A stretch of 48,925 nucleotides of DNA from a virus. Its lineage: Duplodnaviria > Heunggongvirae > Uroviricota > Caudoviricetes. The notes under the pieces are model-generated. The model was not told the DNA's origin, ran no database searches, and worked only from the letters and a program-made list of their open reading frames with translations. Both the position numbers and the translations under genes were made by a program. Positions 3,987 through 37,579 of the stretch are shown here, one piece after another; the first letter of the stretch is position 1; every line of letters starts with the position of its first letter. The stretch is from IMG/VR virus record IMGVR_UViG_3300045988_151382, one strand, 5' to 3'.

Positions 3987-4988
3987 TTAATACCCATTAA
4001 TTACTCTTCGGACATCAATCGAGGTGGTATAACCACTAGTCCCAATTGAATGCACAGCTTTCGATATAAGATATTTTCCAGAAAATGAACCGAATCCCTC
4101 CAGATTTATAGTTACACCAGCTACCAATCTGGTGTCTCCAACCAATACTAAAGATCCGGTATTTTGATATCTATTTTTAAGCCGCAAAGCAGCCTTTGCC
4201 TTACGTTTTGCTTCATCTAAATTAGCTACCAGTTTTCTTATCTTAAGATTCGACCCTTCTTCTACGGATGGATCTACCCAAGTATACGAAAGCGACTTTC
4301 TTTTTTTAGGTACGCGATATTTGCACGTGCAACTTTTATACAAATCTGTAGATTGTGTGCTAAAGCTATATCTGATTATCTCATCAATACCTAACGTAAG
4401 CGTAGCGATAGGATCTTTTTGCTCAAACATCTCTTGAGCAAATATTATTAATTGGCTATCAGTGACCTTTAACGACAACCCTTCATCCTGGCAAAGTCGA
4501 TGGAGAAATTTTAAATCGCTTTCCTCCATTTGATCTTCACGCGCATAATATGGATTACTATCACCATCAATAAGAAACAACAGTTCAAGGTTAGCTAATT
4601 TAGCTATAGAAGTTGCTATATCTTTAAGAGTTGTTTTTTCCCATGCATTACTTTTTAAATCACGTCTAATGCCTGATGAAACAGGAACAGAAACAGCAGT
4701 TACCTCAACCACAGAAGGTGGTCCAGAGCAAGTTATGCCATCTACCTGGAATTTCCCGCACTCAAGGACGATTTGATTTATAGGCTTAAAGCTCAAATCA
4801 ATAAAATCACCCTTTTTAGGTGTCCAGTCTCCAGACCATTTCCCATCATCATTTTTTAATATAATAGAAATATCATCGACCTGACCATCTTCATTATCTG
4901 TATAAGACATTGACAAAACATCAGGTGACATATGAGCGGTAATATTTACATTCTGATATATAACATCAAAAAGCGTTTTACGTAACAC
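3987..4988 (-). CDS. Tail protein D-like (late control D family)
   Basis: 333 aa ORF directly downstream of tape measure and X-like gene, as in P2 T-U/X-D order. Confidence 0.55.
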   Translation of the reverse strand: MLRKTLFDVIYQNVNITAHMSPDVLSMSYTDNEDGQVDDISIILKNDDGKWSGDWTPKKGDFIDLSFKPINQIVLECGKFQVDGITCSGPPSVVEVTAVSVPVSSGIRRDLKSNAWEKTTLKDIATSIAKLANLELLFLIDGDSNPYYAREDQMEESDLKFLHRLCQDEGLSLKVTDSQLIIFAQEMFEQKDPIATLTLGIDEIIRYSFSTQSTDLYKSCTCKYRVPKKRKSLSYTWVDPSVEEGSNLKIRKLVANLDEAKRKAKAALRLKNRYQNTGSLVLVGDTRLVAGVTINLEGFGSFSGKYLISKAVHSIGTSGYTTSIDVRRVINGY

Positions 4989-5196
4989 TATTGCGTCTCC
5001 ACGGAGGAAAATTGTTTACTGATATTGGCATAACCGGAGCATCAGGAACTTTAAGAATAATCCCCGCAGAAAAAAGCACCGTAAAGCGGTGCTCAGTATT
5101 AGCATCAATAAGAAGATAAGACAGGTACTCATTACCATACAACTTTAAAGCGATACTATCCCATGAGTCCCCTTGAACCGTTCTATAATCATCCAA
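4978..5196 (-). CDS. Tail protein X-like with LysM-like motif
   Basis: 72 aa ORF, motif DSWDSIALKLYG resembles LysM; located just after tape measure gene. Confidence 0.5.
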   Translation of the reverse strand: MDDYRTVQGDSWDSIALKLYGNEYLSYLLIDANTEHRFTVLFSAGIILKVPDAPVMPISVNNFPPWRRNSVT

Positions 5197-7981
5197 AACT
5201 TAATCTCCGTTGTTGGAACATATGAGCACTCAATTTCTTCTCAAAATCAGAATATCCCGCATCTAATGCTCTTTTAGCTGCCGCCTCAGTTTCCTTTGGT
5301 GAACCAGCCGGAAGATTGATTACAGGTGAATAGGTTATTCCACCAGTCACAGCGTTAACGTTCTGGCGAGGTCCAGAAGTCCCGGCGGCAGATATCCCGT
5401 GAGGTGATAAATTTGATTGCCCGAACTTGCTTGCTATTGCATTCTGTAAGCTGTTATTCCTGCTAACACCTGATGCCAGAGTAGTCATTATTGCACCACC
5501 TGACTTTGTTAGCTGTGAGAATGGACCTTTTTTCGCGTCAGAGAACGGTAAATACTCACGTACAGAAGAAAAAACGCCTTTCACTTCATTAATTAAAGCA
5601 TTTGCTTTTGATTTTATCCCAGTGATTAACGTCTCAATTATTTTTGCGCCTGACTCACTCCAGTTTATTCCAGATAAATAAGTCGTTACAGATTGGAATG
5701 CTCTTATAAAGAGTCCAACTGGTGAAAAACGCATAAAAACAGATACCAGTGTATCTATGATTTTCTTTCCTGTTTCGCTCCAGTTAATGCCAGAAAGGTA
5801 ATTTGTTGTAATTTTAAATGCTTTAATTAAGAACGGAAGCGGAGACATCCATTTAAAAGCACTAATTAATGTACTGTAAATTCTTACACCTGCCGAACTC
5901 CAGTTTATGTTGGAAAGATAATCCCATGCTTTACCAAACATAGATATAATCCATCCATTGAGGTCAAAGTTTAAGATAAAGTTTTTTATAGCCTCAAATG
6001 ATTTAACTGTATATTCCTTAACAGAAGGCCAAACTCTGACAGCATAATCTCTGATCTTATCCCAATTCTGATAGAGCAATATTCCTGCGGCAACCAGCGC
6101 AGATATAGCCATCTGAATCCACCCGAAGGGTGTTAGCTTTGTCGCTACAGATAAAGCCAGCATAGCTACCCTACACGCTATAACCACACTTTTCATGGTT
6201 AGAAACGCACCTGCCGCCATCACTATCTGAGACACAAAATTGGGGTTGTTAGCTACAAATTCACTAATTTTTGTAATCAGCGGAACCAAAACACTAAGCG
6301 CGGCATTCAAAGCAGGTTGCAAGGCCTGACCAAAACTTAATGATGCATTGCTAGCCTGAATACGTAATTGTTTCAATCGCTCCGCATTATCTTTCGTTAT
6401 GTTGGCAAAATCGCGGTCAATAACAGCACTTCCAGCTCCAAGAGATGTTGCTTTGATTCTCTGGTATTCCTTCCAGTTTTGAATCATCGGACGAACAAAG
6501 TTCTGAACCTGCATATCGCCAAATAGTTCACCAAGTAACTTCTGATCTCCGTTCTTAGTCATTTTCATGACAGAATGCATTGCAGCTTCGAATGGATTCT
6601 TCCCTTTTTTCTGCGCTGTTGTAACAATTTTATATAAATCTACACCGAAATTTTTCTTTGCTTTTTTTAGTGTTTCAGGGGAAAGTATTTTTGCCAAAAA
6701 GTTGTTCATATTATTAGCAGCCTCATCCGAAGTTGCAGCCCCCTTGCGAGCTATCTGCAAAGCTGCACCCATCGTCGCGGCTGCTTCTTTACCTCCCATT
6801 TTTAATGCCTGGAACTGAGCACCAAGCACAGGAAGATTTTTGGCCATATCTTTAAATTCAAAGTTCCCCTCTTTCCCTGCCTGAACCAGAATCCCCATTG
6901 CAGACTTCATTTGAGATGGATCAATCTTCAATGAGTCACTTAATGTAAATGATGCTTTCGAGACATCGAGGATATCAGAGCCAGTAGCTGTAGCTGTTCG
7001 CCCAATAGTTAGTAGATTCGCCTGAGCCTCTTTATAATCCTGCCCAGCAGCGACGAGAAAACCCTGAGCGGCCTGAATATCAGATGCAAACTGGTTGGTA
7101 GCCGTTCCGGTAACAAGCATCGCCTGCCCCATCGCCTGAACTTCTTCCGGCTTCATATCTGCCGTAAGACCAATCATTTTGTTTTCACGATTGAAATTTG
7201 CTGCATTGTTAGCAGCAGCAAATGCACCAGCCGCTACAGCACCAGTTTGTAATCCTGACCTTACAAGTTGACTCTTTGCCTCACCAAGATGCTCTCGCTT
7301 CAATTCACGCTGCCTTTCCAACGCGCGGTTTAACTCCTCCTGAGCACGTTTTACTGCAAGAACATTTTTCCGTGCTTCAGCCAACGCATTTTTATAGCTG
7401 TTAATTTTATCAATACGTTGTTTTTCTAATGCCCGGTTAAGTTCCTCCTGCTGTTTTTTCACTTGCTGAACATTTGCTCTGGCTAAAGCCAAAGCCGTTC
7501 TGTAGCGGTTAACCTGCTCAACGCTACGGGCCTGAGCCTCACGATTACGATCAATGCTGGCTTTAAGCTCTTTCTCTCTTGAGGCCAAAGCTCTGGCAGA
7601 TGTATCAGCTCCCTGATAGGCAGACTTTAAAGCGGCCAGTTCTTCACGCTGAGAACGTAGTGATGCTCGTAAATTCGATGAATGTGTTTTTGCCTTCTCA
7701 AAGTCACGAAGCATCGCTCTGGTTGGATTGGCCGTGTTTTTTATTTGCTTCTGTAACTCTTCAACGCGAGCGGCAGCTTTATGATATTCGAGGGCAGTCT
7801 GTCCAACCTTTACTTTTACAGATTGTAGCTTTTGAATTTCCCCATGTTCTTTCGTTAATCCAGCAAGCTCGGCATTTAATTTAGCAACAGCCTGATTAGC
7901 TGTAGTAAAACTTTTGGGGAGAGAGGCGGCAACTTTGCCGCCAATTTCAAAAGCCAGCTTAAAGTTCTTATTGCTGGCCAT
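5189..7981 (-). CDS. Tail tape measure protein
   Basis: 930 aa ORF, N-terminal coiled-coil rich in A/K/E/Q, multiple hydrophobic segments, C-terminal region; position after chaperone pair. Confidence 0.8.
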   Translation of the reverse strand: MASNKNFKLAFEIGGKVAASLPKSFTTANQAVAKLNAELAGLTKEHGEIQKLQSVKVKVGQTALEYHKAAARVEELQKQIKNTANPTRAMLRDFEKAKTHSSNLRASLRSQREELAALKSAYQGADTSARALASREKELKASIDRNREAQARSVEQVNRYRTALALARANVQQVKKQQEELNRALEKQRIDKINSYKNALAEARKNVLAVKRAQEELNRALERQRELKREHLGEAKSQLVRSGLQTGAVAAGAFAAANNAANFNRENKMIGLTADMKPEEVQAMGQAMLVTGTATNQFASDIQAAQGFLVAAGQDYKEAQANLLTIGRTATATGSDILDVSKASFTLSDSLKIDPSQMKSAMGILVQAGKEGNFEFKDMAKNLPVLGAQFQALKMGGKEAAATMGAALQIARKGAATSDEAANNMNNFLAKILSPETLKKAKKNFGVDLYKIVTTAQKKGKNPFEAAMHSVMKMTKNGDQKLLGELFGDMQVQNFVRPMIQNWKEYQRIKATSLGAGSAVIDRDFANITKDNAERLKQLRIQASNASLSFGQALQPALNAALSVLVPLITKISEFVANNPNFVSQIVMAAGAFLTMKSVVIACRVAMLALSVATKLTPFGWIQMAISALVAAGILLYQNWDKIRDYAVRVWPSVKEYTVKSFEAIKNFILNFDLNGWIISMFGKAWDYLSNINWSSAGVRIYSTLISAFKWMSPLPFLIKAFKITTNYLSGINWSETGKKIIDTLVSVFMRFSPVGLFIRAFQSVTTYLSGINWSESGAKIIETLITGIKSKANALINEVKGVFSSVREYLPFSDAKKGPFSQLTKSGGAIMTTLASGVSRNNSLQNAIASKFGQSNLSPHGISAAGTSGPRQNVNAVTGGITYSPVINLPAGSPKETEAAAKRALDAGYSDFEKKLSAHMFQQRRLSFG

Positions 7982-16273: not shown

Positions 16274-18130
16274 CTATATGGTTACGCCTTTACTTATAAC
16301 TCTACGGCGTCTTCTACGTATACCTGACGAGTTCTGCACATACACATTACCTCGCATTTCCTGTTCGGCAAGCCAGTTAAAATTAGGGTTCAGAATTTCC
16401 ATCGCGGCAGTTGCATAGTTACGGCAATCAAGAGGCTCGTTACGCTCGTAGACTTTCACCCACTTTTCTTTTGTCTGCCCATTTTTATATTCAAATATTT
16501 TTTTCTCTGATAATAATCCTTTAAAGTATTCGGTATCATATCCTCTGTCAGAATCTAATGGGAAATGCATATAACCAGGACCAGGATCATGTAGTTTAAT
16601 TCTTGCCATGATGGTCCCTTTACCATCATCAACCCCCAAATTAAACAACATAGCACCCACACGGTTATTATTACTTGGCTTTCCTATAAATGGTAAACCT
16701 ACCCCACCACGCCCCCTGATAGAGTATATTCGCCTTGATTCTCTCAGCTTAGTGAAGCGATATACCTCTGTCGTAAAATGCCCACCAGAGTCAATACAAA
16801 CAGAAGAAATCTGTAATTTTCGACCGTCACGGAATGACCAGCTACGGAGTAAGTATTCATCAAGTTGTTTCCAGACAACATCTTGTGCGGGATCACCTGG
16901 GAATATTTTATATTCTATCCCCCATGACTCCTTACCTTTTCCCCAACCGACCAATTCACAAACTAAATACGTGTCCTGTACGTCAACACCAGCACTTAAC
17001 AATAAAACATCATCTGGTAAAAACTCTTCAAACCTTATTCTGCGTTGCAACAAGTATTCAGGATCGATATCGTCTTTAGCATCCTCTTTCCATGGCTCAC
17101 CCAGCTTAAGGTTAATAAACTCCATTAATCCATTTTTATCGCGGTTTCTGGTTGCTTCCGTAAATTCTTCAACCAGCTCTGACAATGCAACCCACGGGGA
17201 GTAAAGACTGTTAATATGAAAACCAACAATACCTTTAACTCCAGTATGTTCAGCTATCCATACCCCCTTTGCCAACCAATCAACGTCTGGTTTACCAGAT
17301 CCGCGCATAATCCCGCCGCACTCACAGCACTCATATCTGGCCGTTTCCGGTAACGCCTCACCTGAATCGCTCTTATCCCATCTGACTTGCGACCATTTCA
17401 TCACCTGCATGGTGCCACAACATGGGCAAGGAACATGGTAGTAACGCTGATCGGAGAGCTTAAACCACTTGTGGATTTTGCTCGTTTCCTCCAAAACAGG
17501 AGTAGAAACAAAAACTTTCTTACGATTATGAAAGTTGGTAGTACGCTGAATACCTAGTTTTAGTGGGTCGCCCTCCTGCGTCACACCGTAACGATCAATC
17601 TCATCACCTAACAGTATTCGAATTGGCCTGGATGCAAGACCTGCTGGGGAATTAGCACCAACAAGTGCTATATATCCACCAGCGTAATGCTTCATACGTA
17701 TAGTCGTGCTGGACTTTTTGGCTGCACCGCGCCCCTCTTTCCCTTCATGCAGCTTGTGTTTCAAACCAGGGGAATATTTGAACGTCGGATCAATACGCTC
17801 CTTTGAAAAAGCCTCAGCCGCCTCTACCGTTGGATAAATCATCAACTGAGGAGATGGCTCCTGATCTGCAAAGTAACCCATAACATTTAGCTGTAATTCG
17901 GATTTACCAATTTGCGAGCTACATTGCATCACTACTGTTTCTGTATCAGCGTCACCAATAACATCCATTGGTTCACGCAAATATGGCACTCGGCTTGTAC
18001 GCCACGGCCCTGGCTCTGGAGACGTTCCCGGCGCTACATGACGATACTTATCAGCCCATTCGGAAACAGTTAGCCGTGATTTAGGGCGAAGCGCACGGAA
18101 AAAAGCGGTGCTCCATACTGTTTCGCCCAT
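16274..18130 (-). CDS. Terminase large subunit, lambda gpA-like
   Basis: 618 aa; cysteine cluster CPCCG...CCECGG and ATPase-like N-terminus; followed by gpW and portal. Confidence 0.8.
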   Translation of the reverse strand: MGETVWSTAFFRALRPKSRLTVSEWADKYRHVAPGTSPEPGPWRTSRVPYLREPMDVIGDADTETVVMQCSSQIGKSELQLNVMGYFADQEPSPQLMIYPTVEAAEAFSKERIDPTFKYSPGLKHKLHEGKEGRGAAKKSSTTIRMKHYAGGYIALVGANSPAGLASRPIRILLGDEIDRYGVTQEGDPLKLGIQRTTNFHNRKKVFVSTPVLEETSKIHKWFKLSDQRYYHVPCPCCGTMQVMKWSQVRWDKSDSGEALPETARYECCECGGIMRGSGKPDVDWLAKGVWIAEHTGVKGIVGFHINSLYSPWVALSELVEEFTEATRNRDKNGLMEFINLKLGEPWKEDAKDDIDPEYLLQRRIRFEEFLPDDVLLLSAGVDVQDTYLVCELVGWGKGKESWGIEYKIFPGDPAQDVVWKQLDEYLLRSWSFRDGRKLQISSVCIDSGGHFTTEVYRFTKLRESRRIYSIRGRGGVGLPFIGKPSNNNRVGAMLFNLGVDDGKGTIMARIKLHDPGPGYMHFPLDSDRGYDTEYFKGLLSEKKIFEYKNGQTKEKWVKVYERNEPLDCRNYATAAMEILNPNFNWLAEQEMRGNVYVQNSSGIRRRRRRVISKGVTI

Positions 18131-18135
18131 GAGGT

Positions 18136-18696
18136 TTATTCTTCCTGCTTAATAAATCGGGATTCCTGGAGCGCCTGAAGCGCAAAATTAATTTCGTCTT
18201 CAATAATGCGTTCGATCTCCCTGGCTGTTTTGCCTTCACAACGGGGAGCTGCTCTTGGAGCAATACTAAATAAGCGGCTACGCAATTCATTAGCTGCCAG
18301 AAATGCATCATCCCTGACCGCATCTTTAGCGATGAGAGAGCCTTCCTTTTCTTCAAATTCAAGGCGTTTCAGCTTTGCCTGATAAATTTTTTCTGCGGTC
18401 TTAGCCTTGTTGAATTGCACCGCAACACCGGAAGTACCACCAGCTAATCCGGCATCATCAGCGGGTAACTCTGGTTGTTCCGAAGATATCCCATGCCCTC
18501 TTTTTCCATTTTCAGCAGATACCTCACGACCAACCTGTCGGCTCGCTTCATAAGCCGCACTGGCTTTATCAAAATCCAGCTTGCCGCTTTTCAGCACTGG
18601 AATGCGACCGGAACGACAGAGCTTCGTAACCATTGCCGGAGAAATACCTTTCCGGCGGGCAAACTCTGACTTACTGACGATGGCCATTACTTGCAA
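18136..18696 (-). CDS. Terminase small subunit, Nu1-like HTH
   Basis: 186 aa ORF directly upstream of the large subunit; N-terminal HTH-like segment KSEFARRKGISPAMVTKL. Confidence 0.55.
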   Translation of the reverse strand: MQVMAIVSKSEFARRKGISPAMVTKLCRSGRIPVLKSGKLDFDKASAAYEASRQVGREVSAENGKRGHGISSEQPELPADDAGLAGGTSGVAVQFNKAKTAEKIYQAKLKRLEFEEKEGSLIAKDAVRDDAFLAANELRSRLFSIAPRAAPRCEGKTAREIERIIEDEINFALQALQESRFIKQEE

Positions 18697-19277
18697 CCAT
18701 TAGCAAGATACTGAACAAATCCCTCATGCGTTTCATGCGCGTCGTGGTACTGACGATAAACATCCAGCAACAATGCAATTTCCATATCCGTCGCGGGAAT
18801 ACGTTCTTTATCAATAGCCAGGTACTTAATTTGAACAACAGGGGAAGAATTATCGTCTTCTTCCTGCGGCTGTTCATCGCTTAACATTTCGTCAAGCTCT
18901 GCATCATTAAACCCAAGCAGATCAATATCAAAATCATCATCCATTAACTCTTTGACTTCTTCGGCCAGAAGCTGCATATCCCAGCCAGCATTTAAGGCCA
19001 GCTTGTTATCTGCAATCCTGTACGCCTTCTTCTGTTTTTCAGAAAGGTTACTCAACCGAATCGCCGGAACTTTATCCATTTCCAGAATTTCGGCTGCTGC
19101 AAGCCGACCATGCCCCGCAATCAGTTCATTCTTTTCATCGATCAGCACAGGATTAGTGAAACCGAACTCACGGATACTGTTCACCAACTGTTCAACCTGC
19201 TCATCTGAATGAGTCCGTGAATTTTTGGCGTATCTGAGCAGCTTACCGACTGGTAAATATTCGATTTTTAGAGCCAT
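18687..19277 (-). CDS. ParB-like nuclease domain protein
   Basis: 196 aa; motif NPVLIDEKNELIAGHGRLAAA characteristic of ParB/Srx N-terminal domain; paralog of 21944..22567. Confidence 0.7.
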   Translation of the reverse strand: MALKIEYLPVGKLLRYAKNSRTHSDEQVEQLVNSIREFGFTNPVLIDEKNELIAGHGRLAAAEILEMDKVPAIRLSNLSEKQKKAYRIADNKLALNAGWDMQLLAEEVKELMDDDFDIDLLGFNDAELDEMLSDEQPQEEDDNSSPVVQIKYLAIDKERIPATDMEIALLLDVYRQYHDAHETHEGFVQYLANGCK

Positions 19278-19834
19278 TTTTTAACCGCCATAACACAACA
19301 GGTTAAAGAAAACTGTTTAACTTATTGATACTAAAAGAGAAAAATGACGATCTTTTTACTCATAAAAAATCACACAAACCAGCATAATTATCTGATTTTA
19401 TTAAGTTTTTATAAGTAAAAAGGATCTTGCGATGGTGTTTTGGTTAAAAGATTGGATGTATTTACATGATTTATAACGATTTTTATCAGAACAACATCAC
19501 ATTGGTTAAAGATCTGCACGTATCTTGATGATCTAAAAGAAAATTTTCTACTTTCTTTTTACCAGCACAAATACAGCAAAAAATCACGTTTTCCCGATAT
19601 TTTTCAATGAGATGAGTAAATTTCTTTTACCGCAACTTTTAACCTAACTTTTTTCACGTTTAGCTAGCCGAACATCGGGGTTCGAATGACCCGCATCCAA
19701 CGCTTTTGGCCAGAAGGACCCAATTCTGCCGGACGATGAAACGATGCTCGTGCTCCCCCACAGACAGCCAGCGAGCGACGCTACAGAACACAGTGAATAC
19801 CCCCTGCATAACAACACCATCAACCACACGATGA

Positions 19835-20554
19835 TTAACGAGAGAACGTCTTAGAAAGGATGTCATCAATAGCCTTTGTGACTTCATCAGCAAACGCATC
19901 CTCACCAGCACGCAGCGCCACGCCATGCCAATCAAGACGCTGCGAATAGTTAGGTTGCTGGATGAACGTAAGGATCAACGTAGGACGCCGCCCAACGCGC
20001 TGCCAGACGCCTGGTTGAAGCGGGTTACTTGTACCAGGTCGAACAACAAAAAACTCCGTAGGCTTGCCCTGACGGCGATTTTGATGCGCATCTCGCTGAA
20101 CTCTTAGGCCAGATAAGACCTGCTGTAATTGCCCCCGCGAAATATTCCCGTATTTGTCCAGCTTTGCGCCGGGACCAGGAGCAAGCTGCCAGCCGTTAGG
20201 CAAATATCCACCAGCCCTTAGCGCCCCTTCTGAGCGTTTGTACTGTCGTTGGCCGCCTTCGATTTGCGGAGTCAACGTTACAGGGGCTGGCGTTCCACCC
20301 CATTCACGAGCATACACAATGGCTGTAGGATCACTCTTCTTTGCGGCTAAAACGTAAGTAGAGTTCTGAATCCACGGCGTGGGCCTGTCAAATACCCGAT
20401 TAATTTCATCCTTAATCGCAGCCTGAGAAGCCTTTGCCGTTCTGGTTGCTGTAAGCGCCATTGCGAACGGCAATTCGCGTTCTTCAATGCGCTGGAGTTG
20501 CCGTTGAATATCCTGAGAAGAAAAATCCATCTTTATCTCAATTCTGTCAGCCAC
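19835..20554 (-). CDS. Hypothetical protein
   Basis: 239 aa ORF between ParB-MTase fusion and a 550-bp non-coding region; no motif recognised. Confidence 0.4.
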   Translation of the reverse strand: MADRIEIKMDFSSQDIQRQLQRIEERELPFAMALTATRTAKASQAAIKDEINRVFDRPTPWIQNSTYVLAAKKSDPTAIVYAREWGGTPAPVTLTPQIEGGQRQYKRSEGALRAGGYLPNGWQLAPGPGAKLDKYGNISRGQLQQVLSGLRVQRDAHQNRRQGKPTEFFVVRPGTSNPLQPGVWQRVGRRPTLILTFIQQPNYSQRLDWHGVALRAGEDAFADEVTKAIDDILSKTFSR

Positions 20555-20570
20555 CAGCGCCTCCTACACA

Positions 20571-21950
20571 CTACTTAATCAGCGGCCGGAAAGCCGCCAG
20601 CACATCATCAGATCGTCCGATTGTTGAACCACCAGGCAACGGCAACTCAAACTCAAAACGAACAGCTTTCTCCAGACTCGCCCAACTAAGGGAATCATCG
20701 TTAATGACGTGCAAATACCAGCTCTTACAGTTGAATATTGACCGCTTAATCCTGAAACCATGTACACGACACAACTGCTTCACTTCATCATCAGAGTGAA
20801 ACTTCTGGTAAAACCAGTGCCCCTTCCGGTACAACGCGGTAAAACCGTTATGATCAATAAAATAAAGCCGGCTTTTGGAACTCGCCGCTTGTGTTTGCTT
20901 CAGGACTGTTTCCAGCTCTCCACGGCTACGACCAGAAAAGAATATTGACCCACCAGCTTTACACAGGCCTTTCAGAACCGTCAGAACAGACCATTCAGCC
21001 TCGACACTATCGACCGAGTTCAAAACGCTATCGCAAATCACGTAGTCGTAACGCCCTCGCGTTTTTAAGTCGTCCACCAGCGTATCAATCATCCGGTTTG
21101 TTGCGGTCCTATCCAGAGTGTTTCCAGCGCCCTTACGGCGGAAAAGCTCGAGATCATGCAGGTTATATCCCTTTGCCCTGAGCATTCGCGCGTAGTCTCC
21201 CTGCCCCGAACCAAAATCAATTCCTCTTGGCGTCTTGGCAATGATCGGGAGGATCAACGACTCATACAGGTTTGATTTCAGGCTGCCACCATTACGCAAC
21301 CGCATAAGCTGCGCATACGTCTGGATGTATGTTGTTTTCTCCAGATGAGAATACTCAAATACACCATAAGTTTTATTCAGATAACTTTGGTATTTTTCCT
21401 TCTCAACATCAGGGATCACAAACACCGTTAGCGGTGTGCGCGTCATTTTCGCTGCTAATGCATACTGAGCACAGTGAATAACCTCACCAGACTGAGTAGC
21501 AACACAACCACCCCACGGACCATACTTGATAACCAGTTCCGCTATGTTCTTTCGAACATATGCCATTTTCGCGCGCATATTGCCTGAGATCTGGCTTGCC
21601 GATACCTGAACAAAACCATGCTTATCTTCCAGACCGGACACCCTGCAACGCTCATCTCCGCTATCAAAATCCGTTCCGTTATGCAGTTGGTTAAACCGTA
21701 CTTCGTCGTATACCGTCGTTTCACAGGGCAACACATACACCGCAGCACGCGTTATTCCCAACTTACGTAGCGCCTTCGTCCTTTGGTGTCCCGCCACCAG
21801 CAAATCGCCGCGCACTATCAATGGCTTCACAAGCCCCAGCTCCCTGACGCTTTCCGCCAGCCTCGCAAGATCATCCTCACCGATAAAACGCGGGTTATAT
21901 TCCGCGCCGCGTAGGTGCGTTATGTCGTAATTCAGGTGAAGCATCAGCAC
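20571..21950 (-). CDS. ParB-like N-terminal domain fused to class I SAM-dependent methyltransferase domain
   Basis: 459 aa; N-terminal KPLIVRGDLLVAGHQR (ParB-like); C-terminal IDFGSGQGDYARML (GxGxG SAM motif), later acidic and DSV motifs; no DPPY/NPPY motif seen. Confidence 0.6.
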   Translation of the reverse strand: MLMLHLNYDITHLRGAEYNPRFIGEDDLARLAESVRELGLVKPLIVRGDLLVAGHQRTKALRKLGITRAAVYVLPCETTVYDEVRFNQLHNGTDFDSGDERCRVSGLEDKHGFVQVSASQISGNMRAKMAYVRKNIAELVIKYGPWGGCVATQSGEVIHCAQYALAAKMTRTPLTVFVIPDVEKEKYQSYLNKTYGVFEYSHLEKTTYIQTYAQLMRLRNGGSLKSNLYESLILPIIAKTPRGIDFGSGQGDYARMLRAKGYNLHDLELFRRKGAGNTLDRTATNRMIDTLVDDLKTRGRYDYVICDSVLNSVDSVEAEWSVLTVLKGLCKAGGSIFFSGRSRGELETVLKQTQAASSKSRLYFIDHNGFTALYRKGHWFYQKFHSDDEVKQLCRVHGFRIKRSIFNCKSWYLHVINDDSLSWASLEKAVRFEFELPLPGGSTIGRSDDVLAAFRPLIK

Positions 21951-22567
21951 ACCTCCCCAGCCAGCAATGCGGATACAAATCCGATATAGCTGCCATTATC
22001 ATCAACATAACGAGACACCGCGCAGTCAAAACGATCCGCTTCCTCATCCGTTGCCGGGATTTTATGACCTCCAAATGACAGGTACTGAACTTTTACGCCT
22101 GATTTGGCCTCATCCTTCTCAAATGGGATATCCATACCCTCTGTGTCATCGTAGACCGCCGCACTCAATAAGTTATCCAGTTCGCGCTGAGTAAAACCAA
22201 TTGAGTCCAGAGCAAAATCATCGGCCGCAAGATCTGCAAGCTCCGCGCTTAACAACTCTTCATCCCAACCAGCATTCAGCGGAATACGGTTGTCGGCCAG
22301 ACGATATGCCTTCTTCTGATTCTCCGTTAGCCCAGCCAGAACAATGCAGGGAACATCATCCATCCCCAACTGAGTGGCCGCAGCAATTCGACCATGACCA
22401 GCAATTATAACGTTGTTCTCGTCTATCAGGATCGGATTAGTCCATCCGTACTCCTGTATGCTGGCAACAATCTGATCTACCTGCTCCACGGAGTGTGTGC
22501 GAGCGTTCTTTTCATAACCAATCAACACAGAAAGTGGTAAAGAAACCACATTAAGATGTTTTGTCAT
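21944..22567 (-). CDS. ParB-like nuclease domain protein
   Basis: 207 aa; motif NPILIDENNVIIAGHGRIAAA; clear paralog of 18687..19277. Confidence 0.7.
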   Translation of the reverse strand: MTKHLNVVSLPLSVLIGYEKNARTHSVEQVDQIVASIQEYGWTNPILIDENNVIIAGHGRIAAATQLGMDDVPCIVLAGLTENQKKAYRLADNRIPLNAGWDEELLSAELADLAADDFALDSIGFTQRELDNLLSAAVYDDTEGMDIPFEKDEAKSGVKVQYLSFGGHKIPATDEEADRFDCAVSRYVDDNGSYIGFVSALLAGEVC

Positions 22568-22801: not shown

Positions 22802-23212
22802 TTACGCAGGGATCAAACAGATGTGGCCGTTATTTACCTCAATACGGGAATATTCCGGCTTACCATCCACGATTCCGGTAATGACAAGTTCGCCATCAGG
22901 CGACCATTCTTCTTTGTCGTCTTCAAGTACCGCGCCTTCTGGCAAATCAATACAGGCAAAAACAGGGCAGCCAGGATGACGTTTATCCTCCATCGCAATC
23001 AGCATCGACTCACCGAACCACTCTGTGGTAGCACGGCCATCAGCCGCCTGATAGTGAATCAGATACTGGTTTTCGCCATTTGCATACTGAGCACGGGCTT
23101 GAACTTCTCCCCACTCTTCACTGATACGCATTGTTACCAGTTGGGATAATTCAAACTTAAACGGAACAGACTCTGCACCAATGGCAATCGGTTTATCTTC
23201 TTTCTTTTCCAT
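22802..23212 (-). CDS. Hypothetical protein (start taken at internal Met with SD)
   Basis: ORF track 22802..23281; internal ATG at about 23212 preceded by AGGTGA; upstream part overlaps a terminator. Confidence 0.4.
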   Translation of the reverse strand: MEKKEDKPIAIGAESVPFKFELSQLVTMRISEEWGEVQARAQYANGENQYLIHYQAADGRATTEWFGESMLIAMEDKRHPGCPVFACIDLPEGAVLEDDKEEWSPDGELVITGIVDGKPEYSRIEVNNGHICLIPA

Positions 23213-23222
23213 AACATCACCT

Positions 23223-23253
23223 GAAAATAAAAAGCCCCGCGACACCGCGAGGC
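23223..23253 (-). terminator. Rho-independent terminator (minus strand)
   Basis: GC-rich stem GCCTCGCG/CGCGGGGC with 4-nt loop followed by TTTTTATTTT on the minus strand. Confidence 0.5.
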
Positions 23254-23261
23254 TGTAAGAG

Positions 23262-23414
23262 TTACTTTCGATATAAATCAAGGCGCATTTGCTCCCGCTT
23301 AAGCCGAAAAGCCCTCTGCGCCACTAAGATGCGCCACAGGACACCAGCGATAACCACCAGCGAGATACAAAAACACACGGCCACAACCATCAGAAAAATG
23401 CCAACACCATTCAT
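23262..23414 (-). CDS. Small membrane protein (about 50 aa), not in ORF track
   Basis: Hand translation MNGVGIFLMVVAVCFCISLVVIAGVLWRILVAQRAFRLKREQMRLDLYRK; ATG overlaps stop of upstream gene (ATGA). Confidence 0.35.
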   Translation of the reverse strand: MNGVGIFLMVVAVCFCISLVVIAGVLWRILVAQRAFRLKREQMRLDLYRK

Positions 23415-24553: not shown

Positions 24554-25141
24554 CTATGCCACTTGCCAGAGAGCATCATGCAACTGGATACCTCCATTGC
24601 ACTGGTTGCCCCAGCCATGCCAACCATCAGGTAAATCACCGCGAGCAAACAGCTCAATACGAGGAACATCACCTAACAGCCTTACCAGCTTGTCACGAAC
24701 CACATCAGGCTTCCGAGAATGCTCCAGACGAGGCGATGTAAACGACTGAATGATCCCCGCATCAAGGCGGGTCGGCAATTTGCCTTTTACCGCAAACAAG
24801 CAATCTTCACTGTTTGCACGAGTCATATGCCCCATCCCCATCACCAGCTTATCTGGTTGTCGGCTACCACATTTGTTCCATGTGAAGCCCTTCATGGTCA
24901 TAAGCCTGAATCCCCATGCTTTCACCACCAGCAACGCTTCTTCTGGCTGAGTCGGAACCCACCACATGGCCAACAAACACGATTCAGGATTAGCAAGCTG
25001 CCAGACAGGAATACGAGCAATATCCTCAGCTTTCATCGTTGGATACTTAAAACCAGCTCCACGATTCCCATCCTTACACTTATCTTTGTATTCCCAGGGG
25101 GGATCTGCATAAATCAGATTAAACAATGCAATTGCCTCCAT
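24554..25141 (-). CDS. MT-A70 family DNA N6-adenine methyltransferase
   Basis: 195 aa; N-terminal YADPPWEY motif (DPPW catalytic motif of the MT-A70 family). Confidence 0.7.
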   Translation of the reverse strand: MEAIALFNLIYADPPWEYKDKCKDGNRGAGFKYPTMKAEDIARIPVWQLANPESCLLAMWWVPTQPEEALLVVKAWGFRLMTMKGFTWNKCGSRQPDKLVMGMGHMTRANSEDCLFAVKGKLPTRLDAGIIQSFTSPRLEHSRKPDVVRDKLVRLLGDVPRIELFARGDLPDGWHGWGNQCNGGIQLHDALWQVA

Positions 25142-25449: not shown

Positions 25450-25525
25450 TGGTGGCCCCTACCGGATTTGAACCGATGACCGTGCGATTATGAGTCGCCT
25501 GCTCTAACCACTGAGCTAAGGGGCC
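25450..25525 (-). tRNA. tRNA with CAU anticodon (Met or Ile2/lysidine type), CCA encoded
   Basis: Minus-strand sequence GGCCCCTTAGCTCAGTGGTTAGAGCAGGCGACTCATAATCGC...GGTTCAAATCC...AGGGGCCACCA; 7-bp acceptor stem, D-loop AGCTCAGTGGTTAGAGC, T-loop TTCAAAT. Confidence 0.8.
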
Positions 25526-36905: not shown

Positions 36906-36925
36906 AACACATGGAGTCTCGACAA

Positions 36926-37579
36926 ATGACTATATCTGTAGGTATTTTCAACGGAAAAGGCGGCGTAACCAAATCAACCATTGCTCGTGCTTTAGCAGTT
37001 GCTTATGCAAAGGCTGGCTGGAATGTATGCCTGATCGATATGGATGTGCTTAACGGAACGGTAACGCGTTGGGTACAACGCAGAATGGCCAACAATATCG
37101 AACCTGCAATCGCGGCGCAGCCGTGCGGCACGCCATCACAAGTCCAGAAAATCATCGAATCAGAAGTATACGACCTGGTTATCGTTGATGGCGGTGCCTA
37201 CGCATCTGAATCAGTACCGAAGCTCTCTGAATTTCTGGATATGGTTATTTTGCCAACCAGATTCTCTACCGATGACCTGGAAACCACCGTTAACACAGCT
37301 CACGGCATCGTTAAAAAGGGTGTACCAATCAAGAAAATTTGCATGGTGTTTTCCGGCGCGGCTGAAAACGAAGCTGACTATATTGAAGCCCAAGAGTACC
37401 TGGCTAATACGCCATACTTTGTTGTCGATAAGTACATTCCCCACAAGCCAGCTCTGAGCAAAGCTCAGGATAAAGGCTTAAGCCTCATTGAGTGCTCATA
37501 CGTTGCGCCACGCAAAAAAGCAGACGACGTTATTCAGGGGATTATCAACCAGCTTGAGGCTCTGACTACTGCCGCGTAA
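36926..37579 (+). CDS. ParA-like partition ATPase (short type)
   Basis: Deviant Walker A GKGGVTKST near the N-terminus when started at 36926 (ORF track starts 36911). Confidence 0.7.
   Translation: MTISVGIFNGKGGVTKSTIARALAVAYAKAGWNVCLIDMDVLNGTVTRWVQRRMANNIEPAIAAQPCGTPSQVQKIIESEVYDLVIVDGGAYASESVPKLSEFLDMVILPTRFSTDDLETTVNTAHGIVKKGVPIKKICMVFSGAAENEADYIEAQEYLANTPYFVVDKYIPHKPALSKAQDKGLSLIECSYVAPRKKADDVIQGIINQLEALTTAA

Follow-up and report, generated by a model that had tools for sequence, protein, structure and literature searches.

The ParB–Tls locus is a phage region that runs from a ParB-like gene to the gene for the terminase large subunit and holds methyltransferases and other DNA-modifying genes; as related in passages of PMC6536676 and PMC4738411, ParB is sometimes fused to an enzyme there, and DNA modification around packaging was predicted in a purely computational study (Iyer, Zhang, Burroughs and Aravind, NAR 2013). 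ParB-type genes beside phage terminases are extremely common, and the idea that modification and packaging are coupled dates from 2013 and has seen almost no experimental test. Among Paracoccus phages, 36 ParB–methyltransferase genes were found, all of them upstream of the terminase (Decewicz et al. 2019, PMC6536676). More recently, Kaljevic et al. (PNAS 2025, PMC12704722), in the sections of their paper that concern fusions, listed Methyltransf_23 as one of the domains with the strongest enrichment in phage ParB fusions, described bacterial and gut-phage ParB–Methyltransf_23 constructs, including an R-to-A pocket mutant, for nucleotide-binding assays, reported ATP binding for ParB–SAM-methyltransferase fusions (SAM, S-adenosylmethionine) and suggested anti-defence roles for phage ParB fusions. 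The first direct evidence of a phage ParB activating a DNA-modifying enzyme came in 2026 with 5mYOX176/ParB176, in which a small phage ParB is required for the action of a T-dioxygenase on double-stranded DNA, and in which mutations of the ParB176 pocket did not abolish activation of the dioxygenase (PNAS 2026, PMC13229309). Here we describe a locus of this kind in the IMG/VR virus record IMGVR_UViG_3300045988_151382 (Caudoviricetes; 48,925 nucleotides, hereafter the window), which represents a phage-plasmid of Escherichia coli of about 48 kb.

The ParB-like genes of this element lie in a co-directional cluster on the minus strand, in which ParB2 (21944..22567), a ParB–methyltransferase fusion (20571..21950), ParB1 (18687..19277) and the terminase genes terS (18136..18696) and terL (16274..18130) all fall within 6.3 kb. 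An earlier note on this DNA, made from its letters only, had pointed to three genes of the ParB/Srx type and to an open reading frame (ORF) for a 239-residue protein, here called p239 (19835..20554), and all four ORFs were found at the places and on the strand that it had given. A ParB-like gene and the TerL gene stand in one co-directional cluster, and the enzyme fused to ParB is a putative DNA-modifying one; we assign the region to the ParB–Tls type, for which the function is itself only predicted. We propose, with a probability of roughly 45%, that ParB2 and the fusion together make up a SAM-dependent methyltransferase of two components, gated by nucleotide, which marks the DNA of the phage before packaging, and that ParB1 is a TerS-coupled adaptor at the cohesive-end site (cos). 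In such a system the ParB domain of the fusion and the acidic ParB2 would bind a nucleoside triphosphate (NTP; ATP or CTP) and would engage each other through their ParB domains, and late in infection this NTP-driven engagement would free the basic methyltransferase domain or position it on phage DNA that has been replicated. Such DNA would be marked before or during its packaging by the adjacent terminase, which may provide self-marking or protection from restriction, and ParB1, made in step with TerS, would act at or near cos as an adaptor of the packaging complex.

The fusion carries both of the domains that this proposal calls for. It matches phrog_5475 over its full length (E 2e-265), and it is built of a ParB nucleotide-binding domain (residues 1-95), a middle domain that is conserved in the family (about 100-215), then the class I SAM methyltransferase domain (about 233-400) and finally C-terminal helices. 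The Pfam ParB_N model scores 24.3 bits on it, just below the cut-off of 26.3, and a profile of the fusion family matches the Bacillus subtilis ParB structure 6sdk (E 1e-8). For the C-terminal domain, which the earlier note had read as class I SAM-binding, with placement in a non-methyltransferase family by profile searches named as what would overturn that reading, the Pfam search returned Methyltransf_23 (E 8e-8, above the family cut-off). The AlphaFold2 model of the fusion is confident (pLDDT, the predicted local distance difference test, 94; pTM, the predicted template modelling score, 0.90) and shows a class I Rossmann methyltransferase fold in its C-terminal part; a Foldseek search of the PDB with the fusion returned 521 hits with E<=0.001, of which the 50 listed are without exception class I methyltransferases. 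The predicted Rossmann fold, motif I and the acidic motif II residue thus identify the domain as a class I SAM methyltransferase.

The residues expected of active nucleotide and SAM pockets are conserved throughout the family. In 49 members that share 45-89% identity, the NxR and GxxR elements of the ParB pocket, the DFGxG of motif I and the acidic residue of motif II are all invariant, as are AGHQR, E268 and D307/N311/S312, the last group within a DxVxNS signature that follows strand 4. The invariant positions further include a strongly conserved E-x-x-F-N-Q-x-H-N-G-T-D segment after the ParB domain and GxWGG and HxxQY in the middle domain. In the fusion itself motif I reads IDFGSGQGDY. The longer ParB motif that the earlier note had assigned to all three genes fits ParB1 and ParB2, whereas the fusion follows it only loosely, with PLIV-RGDLLVAGHQR, one residue shorter. 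The middle domain has no Pfam match even at E 10. The pattern of its secondary structure suggested a second, degenerate ParB domain at residues 112-190, which proved unsupported, as hhalign of the first domain against the middle domain aligned 11 columns with a probability of 0.5%. The protein is basic, with an isoelectric point (pI) of 9.2 and a net charge of +9 in the methyltransferase domain, and its start is probably the ATG at 21944, which gives 457 residues as in RefSeq.

The architecture is widespread and stable. A HMMER search of 1.84 billion representatives at E<=1e-30 recovered 238 clusters (50% identity), and of the 150 listed almost every one is 450-490 residues long with a single full-length match; the architecture is fixed from Proteobacteria to Bacteroidota, and the fusion is encoded in only 7 of 50,697 records of cultured phages. 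A distant member (27% identity) is encoded at 4911-6245 of the Firmicutes phage BtpYZU02 of Brochothrix, without an adjacent small ParB, in a replication/recombination module, where it has an HNH nuclease as its neighbour and terS follows about 4 kb downstream.

ParB2 is a small, acidic, stand-alone ParB in which a helical linker joins the nucleotide-binding domain to an acidic C-terminal domain. The protein matches the 'ParB-like' family phrog_620 (E 1e-74), scores 25.0 bits with Pfam ParB_N, just under the cut-off of 26.3, and carries the NxR and AGHGR motifs; its pI is 4.3 and its C-terminal half has a net charge of -18, complementary to that of the basic fusion. The ParB2 stop codon overlaps the start of the fusion (TGATG), and the two genes form a translationally coupled accessory cassette. 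To place this pair in a wider context, we drew 77 fusion loci from IMG/VR and clustered them at 90% identity, which left 47; in 41 of these there was room for a small ParB upstream of the fusion. All 41 carry a small ParB ORF within 1.5 kb upstream, and in 35 it is directly adjacent and on the same strand. A second small ParB downstream of the fusion was found in only 3 of the 47 loci. In the Bacteroides phage BS-TP3 the order is ParB, fusion, terS and terL, as in the window. Furthermore, the distance matrices of the small ParB and the fusion are correlated (r=0.67, a value reached by none of 2000 permutations), and this correlation equals that between the fusion's own ParB and methyltransferase domains. 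These findings mark ParB2 as an obligate partner of the fusion, encoded upstream of it.

In 24 of the 47 non-redundant loci the fusion is followed by a third conserved protein of about 145 residues, which is basic and Cys-rich and directly adjacent in 22 of them (for example at 2210-2644 of locus L006, 9419-9883 of L004 and 2037-2471 of L032; L numbers are our labels for loci and contigs). It has the motifs YFWxK, HCARCL, YxCGV and TCRNFQF, matches no family of Pfam or PHROG, is encoded on the opposite strand in some loci (L025-L028) and is absent from the window and its close relatives.

Several observations weigh against a nucleotide-gated enzyme that acts on DNA. The motifs [DNS]PP[YFW], PCQ and ENV, sought by regular expression, are absent from the fusion and from all 49 family members, which bears out the earlier note's remark that DPPY/NPPY is missing and places the fusion among neither the DNA amino-methyltransferases (motif IV) nor the cytosine-C5 enzymes (PCQ/ENV). 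The structures and sequences nearest to the methyltransferase domain are those of UbiG, Trm9, METTL6 and GNMT, all small-molecule or tRNA enzymes, at 10-17% identity. No DNA-binding domain could be recognised in ParB1, ParB2 or the fusion, the middle domain of the fusion and the C-terminal domains of the small ParBs being without a Pfam match, and the phage already encodes a canonical DNA methylase of the MT-A70 type. As to the gating, pocket mutants of ParB176 still activate their enzyme, and NTP control is therefore not assured; as to the complex, the co-divergence of an adjacent small ParB and fusion is no proof of physical interaction.

Because the methyltransferase domain resembles small-molecule and tRNA enzymes and is without DNA motifs, a non-DNA substrate is a serious rival. 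The fusion might then be a ParB-regulated methyltransferase, with ParB2 as its regulator, for a packaging or virion protein (terminase, portal or capsid), for tRNA or rRNA, or for a nucleotide or small molecule, as in anti-defence. Protein-lysine methyltransferases are also among its nearest neighbours, ParB/Srx folds serve as ATP-binding modules of enzymes as well (SerK, Srx), and in the portion of the published account that deals with them, ParB–SAM-methyltransferase fusions bound ATP rather than CTP. On the other hand, the partner ParB module is the one found in bona fide DNA amino-methyltransferases, and the enzymes otherwise found in loci of this type are DNA-modifying ones. In addition, terminase genes of four families accompany the fusion family across phyla, and a protein or tRNA target peculiar to one lineage is for that reason unlikely. 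We hold a non-DNA substrate to be unlikely on balance, but worth serious attention. The fold itself was uninformative on this point, since the Foldseek matches listed were generic class I methyltransferases and a profile search of the PDB gave UbiG and similar enzymes. A bolder form of the proposal, in which a UbiG-like class I methyltransferase, a new kind of DNA-modifying enzyme, places a non-canonical mark on DNA (not N6-A, N4-C or C5-C) and is switched by NTP-dependent heterodimerisation of its ParB domain with the small acidic ParB, and in which ParB1 tethers this chemistry to TerS at cos and so couples modification physically to packaging, is one that we think decidedly improbable.

The DNA-marking methyltransferase that we favour draws on the kinship of the small ParBs. 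ParB1 scores 33.7 bits with Pfam ParB_N (cut-off 26.3), matches phrog_620 (E 5e-75) and is 48% identical to ParB2 from end to end (E 4e-62). The ParB domains of ParB1, ParB2 and the fusion all keep an upstream NxR and AGH(G/Q)R, with the arginine of GxxR, and Box I and the GxxR of Box II identify all three as predicted ParB-CTPase folds. The search for ParB1 homologs was swamped by variants at least 99% identical, and a scan of IMG/VR was used in its place; among the best 80 relatives, about 35 are stand-alone proteins of 165-270 residues and about 45 are fusions of 380-540 residues with the consensus motifs HRLMCGD, FTDPPY and FGGSG. Residues 1-145 of ParB1 and ParB2 share 55-64% identity with the N-terminal module of the DPPY-bearing ParB–N6_N4 DNA methyltransferases, and both proteins match phrog_498, the ParB–N6_N4 family (E 4e-52 for ParB1, 1e-50 for ParB2). 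This segment is a stand-alone version of the phage ParB–N6_N4 methyltransferase N-terminal module. In a neighbour-joining tree, built without support values, ParB1 and ParB2 fall into different clades of fusion-partner ParBs, which speaks against a recent tandem duplication.

The small ParBs share a common build: the nucleotide-binding domain, which is conserved, leads into an ADN...GWD..LL..EL linker, and an acidic spacer and a short domain at the C-terminus follow. They are strongly acidic, with a pI of 4.3-4.5 (family median 4.6) and a net charge of -19 to -20, of which the C-terminal half, about 100 residues, carries -18 to -21. Acidic small ParBs beside a basic fusion would fit a nucleic-acid-binding enzyme with an acidic regulator. 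The same concentration of charge would suit anti-defence decoys, DNA mimics or regulators of host factors that stand in the late region by chance, an explanation that could also draw on the cassette of ParB2 and the fusion, which contains one of the small ParBs of the window and behaves like a mobile accessory element, and on the anti-defence roles suggested for phage ParB fusions in the sections of Kaljevic et al. cited above (PMC12704722). Decoys would however not be expected to conserve the residues of a nucleotide pocket, to be strictly paired and co-divergent with the fusion, or to keep a place beside the terminase across phyla rather than in the variable early regions, and we consider this explanation very improbable.

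A role as centromere-binding partition proteins of the phage-plasmid is what the database label 'partitioning protein ParB' would imply, and the element is indeed kept as a plasmid in 80 of its 83 matching places in E. coli. However, the three proteins score 40.1, 31.2 and 16.4 bits with TIGR00180 against a cut-off of 58.45, with only residues of about 10-98 aligned; they have no helix-turn-helix (HTH) domain, their C-terminal parts have no Pfam match, and no ParA-binding motif (LG[KR]GL, searched as [LFI]G[KR]G[LFI]) was found in them. The ParA gene lies at 36911-37579, about 14 kb away, with a small adjacent ORF of its own, and the same ParB-like genes stand beside terminases in chromosomal prophages and in phages that are not plasmids. 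The missing HTH domain and ParA-binding motif, the low TIGR00180 scores and the distant ParA together lead us to reject partition, which we regard as scarcely tenable.

The ParB1 stop codon overlaps the start of terS (TAATG), the terS start being probably the ATG at 18687, and the translation of ParB1, which comes first after the probable cos, is coupled to that of terS. The position of cos was deduced from the ends of phage records. Those of the Yersinia phages vB_YpM_39 and vB_YpM_41 start with GGTCATTCGAAC-CCCGATG, whereas that of vB_YpM_44 starts with CCCGATG and ends with GGTCATTCGAAC. An offset of 12 nucleotides among the three record ends is what a 12-base cohesive end yields in assemblies, and we therefore place a probable 12-base cos at 19680..19691, reading 5'-GGTCATTCGAAC-3' on the minus strand. 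The 12-mer is exactly conserved in relatives whose fusion proteins are about 90% identical. It lies in the gap of 557 bp between p239 and ParB1 (19278-19834), and this position fits a terminase of the lambda gpA type. With cos in this gap, the genes of the cluster would be contiguous only on circular or concatemeric DNA, and cos likely splits the ParB cluster in virion DNA. In addition, five of the six GGTTAAAR matches of the 48.9-kb window are clustered, in both orientations, in an AT-rich stretch of 367 bp between cos and ParB1 (19278..19644). These repeats form a cosB-like array and are candidate binding sites for TerS or a ParB protein; the array is partly conserved in locus L012 and absent in L015.

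A comparison with three IMG/VR relatives (L090-L092) separated the two parts of the cluster. Their DNA is about 74% identical to the window from 20565 through p239, the gap, ParB1, terS and terL, and the homology ends at about 20565, which is 6 bp past the fusion stop codon. They lack ParB2, the fusion and MT-A70, show the order lysis genes, phrog_1935 and p239, and have kept cos. This pattern indicates that ParB2 and the fusion are a discrete accessory cassette and that ParB1 belongs to the packaging backbone, consistent with the retention of ParB1 with terS and terL in relatives without the fusion. The earlier note had treated the two ParB-like paralogs and the fusion as one cluster, but the cluster consists of two separable units.

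The same comparison places p239, which the earlier note had left unassigned inside the cluster, outside the ParB–methyltransferase cassette. The protein (phrog_1924) is basic, has a neck/tail fold like that of HK97 gp10 and is part of the packaging/virion backbone; it travels with gpA-type terminases and not with the ParB genes. It shares the gp10 fold with the HK97 gp10 family of neck/tail proteins (SaPI1/80alpha neck, PDB 9mu2 chain P), but is twice as long, has no Pfam HK97-gp10 match and is encoded just upstream of cos and terS, not among the head-tail joining genes. In distant phages a member of its family invariably stands last before a gap of about 150 bp, beyond which terS and a gpA-type TerL are encoded (L087:7001-7729, L088:7001-7747 and L089:7001-7747). 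This is the place that the HNH protein gp74 occupies in HK97, with a gp10 fold here away from the head-tail genes.

The link to the terminase extends well beyond this element. In about 32 of 44 loci, the first ORF of at least 400 residues downstream of the fusion is TerL (16 gpA, about 11 Terminase_6, 3 TerL_ATPase and 2 Terminase_3), and for ParB1-like genes TerL is the nearest large ORF in about 48 of 53 loci (about 91%). In several contigs (L107, L112-L114, L123-L125, L130, L131 and L138), mostly from one metagenome (3300045988), the ParB1-like gene, either stand-alone (195 residues) or an N6_N4 fusion (about 412 residues), lies between terL and the portal gene and not upstream of terS.

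The usual place of ParB1-like genes beside TerL, the coupling of ParB1 to terS and its retention with terS and terL when the cassette is absent would also agree with the ParB-like proteins being NTP-regulated nucleases or nickases that aid the terminase in the maturation of DNA at cos or pac, in the manner of gp74, the HNH protein of HK97, or that break down DNA of the host or of competitors, with the methyltransferase in a secondary role. Some ParB/Srx proteins do nick or cut DNA (Osa and a Bacillus cereus ParB-methylase, summarised in PMC5512222). However, the gpA-type TerL has a nuclease domain of its own (GpA_nuclease, E 5e-84, beside GpA_ATPase, E 2e-75), the small ParBs are strongly acidic and have no DNA-binding domain, and the ParB module accompanies both cos-type and headful-type terminase families. 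The last point, with four TerL families beside the module, makes a role specific to cos cleavage unlikely. No match to an HNH family was found in ParB1, ParB2, the fusion or p239, which leaves them outside the HK97 gp74 type, and a literature search found no packaging role assigned to ParB-like proteins. We judge the nuclease explanation improbable. The suggestion in the earlier note of a module for DNA modification, packaging-associated nuclease action or anti-restriction is thus in keeping with the ParB–Tls concept and with this terminase census as far as modification beside packaging is concerned, whereas no sign of nuclease or anti-restriction activity was seen.

The wider setting is that of a complete phage. 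About 5.4 kb round the ParB cluster is 99% identical to circular E. coli plasmids of 47-48 kb; matches occur in 74 of 5,426 complete E. coli genomes, and further matches to the same 5.4 kb are the Escherichia phage vB_EcoM-613R2 and three phages of Yersinia pestis. As annotated in RefSeq, a near-identical plasmid encodes a complete myovirus, with a terminase of the gpA type, together with ParA and toxin-antitoxin genes, from which we conclude that the element is a phage-plasmid. On the minus strand the order of transcription is MT-A70, small ORFs, phrog_1935 (22802-23281, upstream of ParB2), ParB2, the fusion, p239, the 557-bp gap, ParB1, terS (phrog_57, E 7e-42) and terL. The position downstream of an MT-A70 methylase and upstream of terS and terL, as the earlier note had it, therefore holds.

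The stand-alone MT-A70 DNA methyltransferase (24554..25141, minus strand; 195 residues; Pfam MT-A70 E 3e-23, with DPPW at residue 13) is encoded about 2 kb upstream of the cassette with terminator-like hairpins in between. It was not detected in L090-L092 and stands outside the conserved module. The family phrog_21315 (415 residues) is matched at its N-terminus by ParB1 and ParB2 and at its C-terminus by the MT-A70 protein of the window, from which it follows that ParB–MT-A70 fusions exist in phages; the stand-alone MT-A70 and small ParB found here could be a split version of such a fusion. Strong terminator-like hairpins lie upstream of phrog_1935 (23953-23930 and 23254-23233, minus strand), and a further hairpin with a T-run lies at about 22740-22690 (minus strand), within the 234-bp gap upstream of ParB2. 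With these hairpins upstream, the cassette may have its own transcription start; a promoter scan gave no convincing sigma-70 candidate for it. A tRNA gene with the anticodon CAT (25450-25525, minus strand) lies between the lysis genes and MT-A70; ARAGORN calls it tRNA-Met and PGAP calls it tRNA-Ile in the near-identical plasmid, and it was the sole match of an Rfam scan.

For the biochemistry of the ParB–Tls class this element is a tractable place to start: an inducible E. coli/Yersinia phage-plasmid with a clean two-gene cassette that is missing in natural relatives and with a second ParB coupled to TerS. Identification of the substrate of the 460-residue fusion could uncover a new mark on DNA or show the ParB nucleotide switch in a new regulatory role, and would also correct a widespread mislabelling of such proteins as 'partition protein' or 'nuclease'. 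Our literature search found no substrate or role assigned to the ParB–Methyltransf_23 family, and papers on the HQ103 Yersinia phage, a Serratia phage and the VarioGold phages, together with a preprint on E. coli phage-like plasmids, held nothing functional on these genes.

When set beside the known systems, the locus resembles the ParB–Tls type in that ParB-like genes and a methyltransferase gene, which here is fused to ParB, form a single co-directional late cluster with terS and terL, and the ParB module of ParB1 and ParB2 has its 55-64% identity with just those ParB–N6_N4 enzymes that are typical of ParB–Tls loci. It differs in that its enzyme is of the class I Methyltransf_23/UbiG-like kind without DPPY, in that the fusion always has a separate small ParB besides its own ParB domain, and in that three ParB domains are present and the locus is interrupted by cos and a neck-type protein. 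ParB–N6_N4 methyltransferases (phrog_498; Paracoccus phages; Bce_0392 of B. cereus) have the same N-terminal ParB module and helical linker GWD..LL..EL as ParB1 and ParB2 and, like the ParBs of the window, are encoded beside terS/terL or the portal gene. They carry a beta-class amino-methyltransferase with DPPY, whereas ParB1 and ParB2 have no enzyme domain and the fusion has a methyltransferase of another class and a more divergent ParB domain.

With the class of Kaljevic et al., ParB-CTPase plus PF13489, for which enrichment in phages and prophages was reported, the fusion shares PF02195 and PF13489 on one phage-encoded polypeptide, as seen also in precomputed Pfam annotation of homologs; the identity of that class with phrog_5475 is deduced from architecture only, and the sections of their paper that treat it do not report an obligate small-ParB partner, the terminase synteny of the fusion or a substrate. 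ParB2 resembles ParB176 in having a nucleotide-binding and a C-terminal domain, in having no DNA-binding domain and in being encoded beside an enzyme, which for ParB176 is a DNA-modifying one, and the pocket pattern N-x-R / S / R is common to both (N14, R16, S29 and R56 in ParB176; N21, R23, S36 and R60 in ParB2). The enzyme 5mYOX176 is unlike the fusion, being an iron/2-oxoglutarate dioxygenase and not a methyltransferase and having no ParB domain of its own. The ParB–Tls locus type and the ParB plus Methyltransf_23 architecture were thus already known, and to these the present analysis adds the strict pairing of the fusion with a small ParB, the division of the cluster into a cassette and a packaging backbone, a probable cos inside the cluster, the assignment of p239 and, in loci other than this one, a third partner of about 145 residues.

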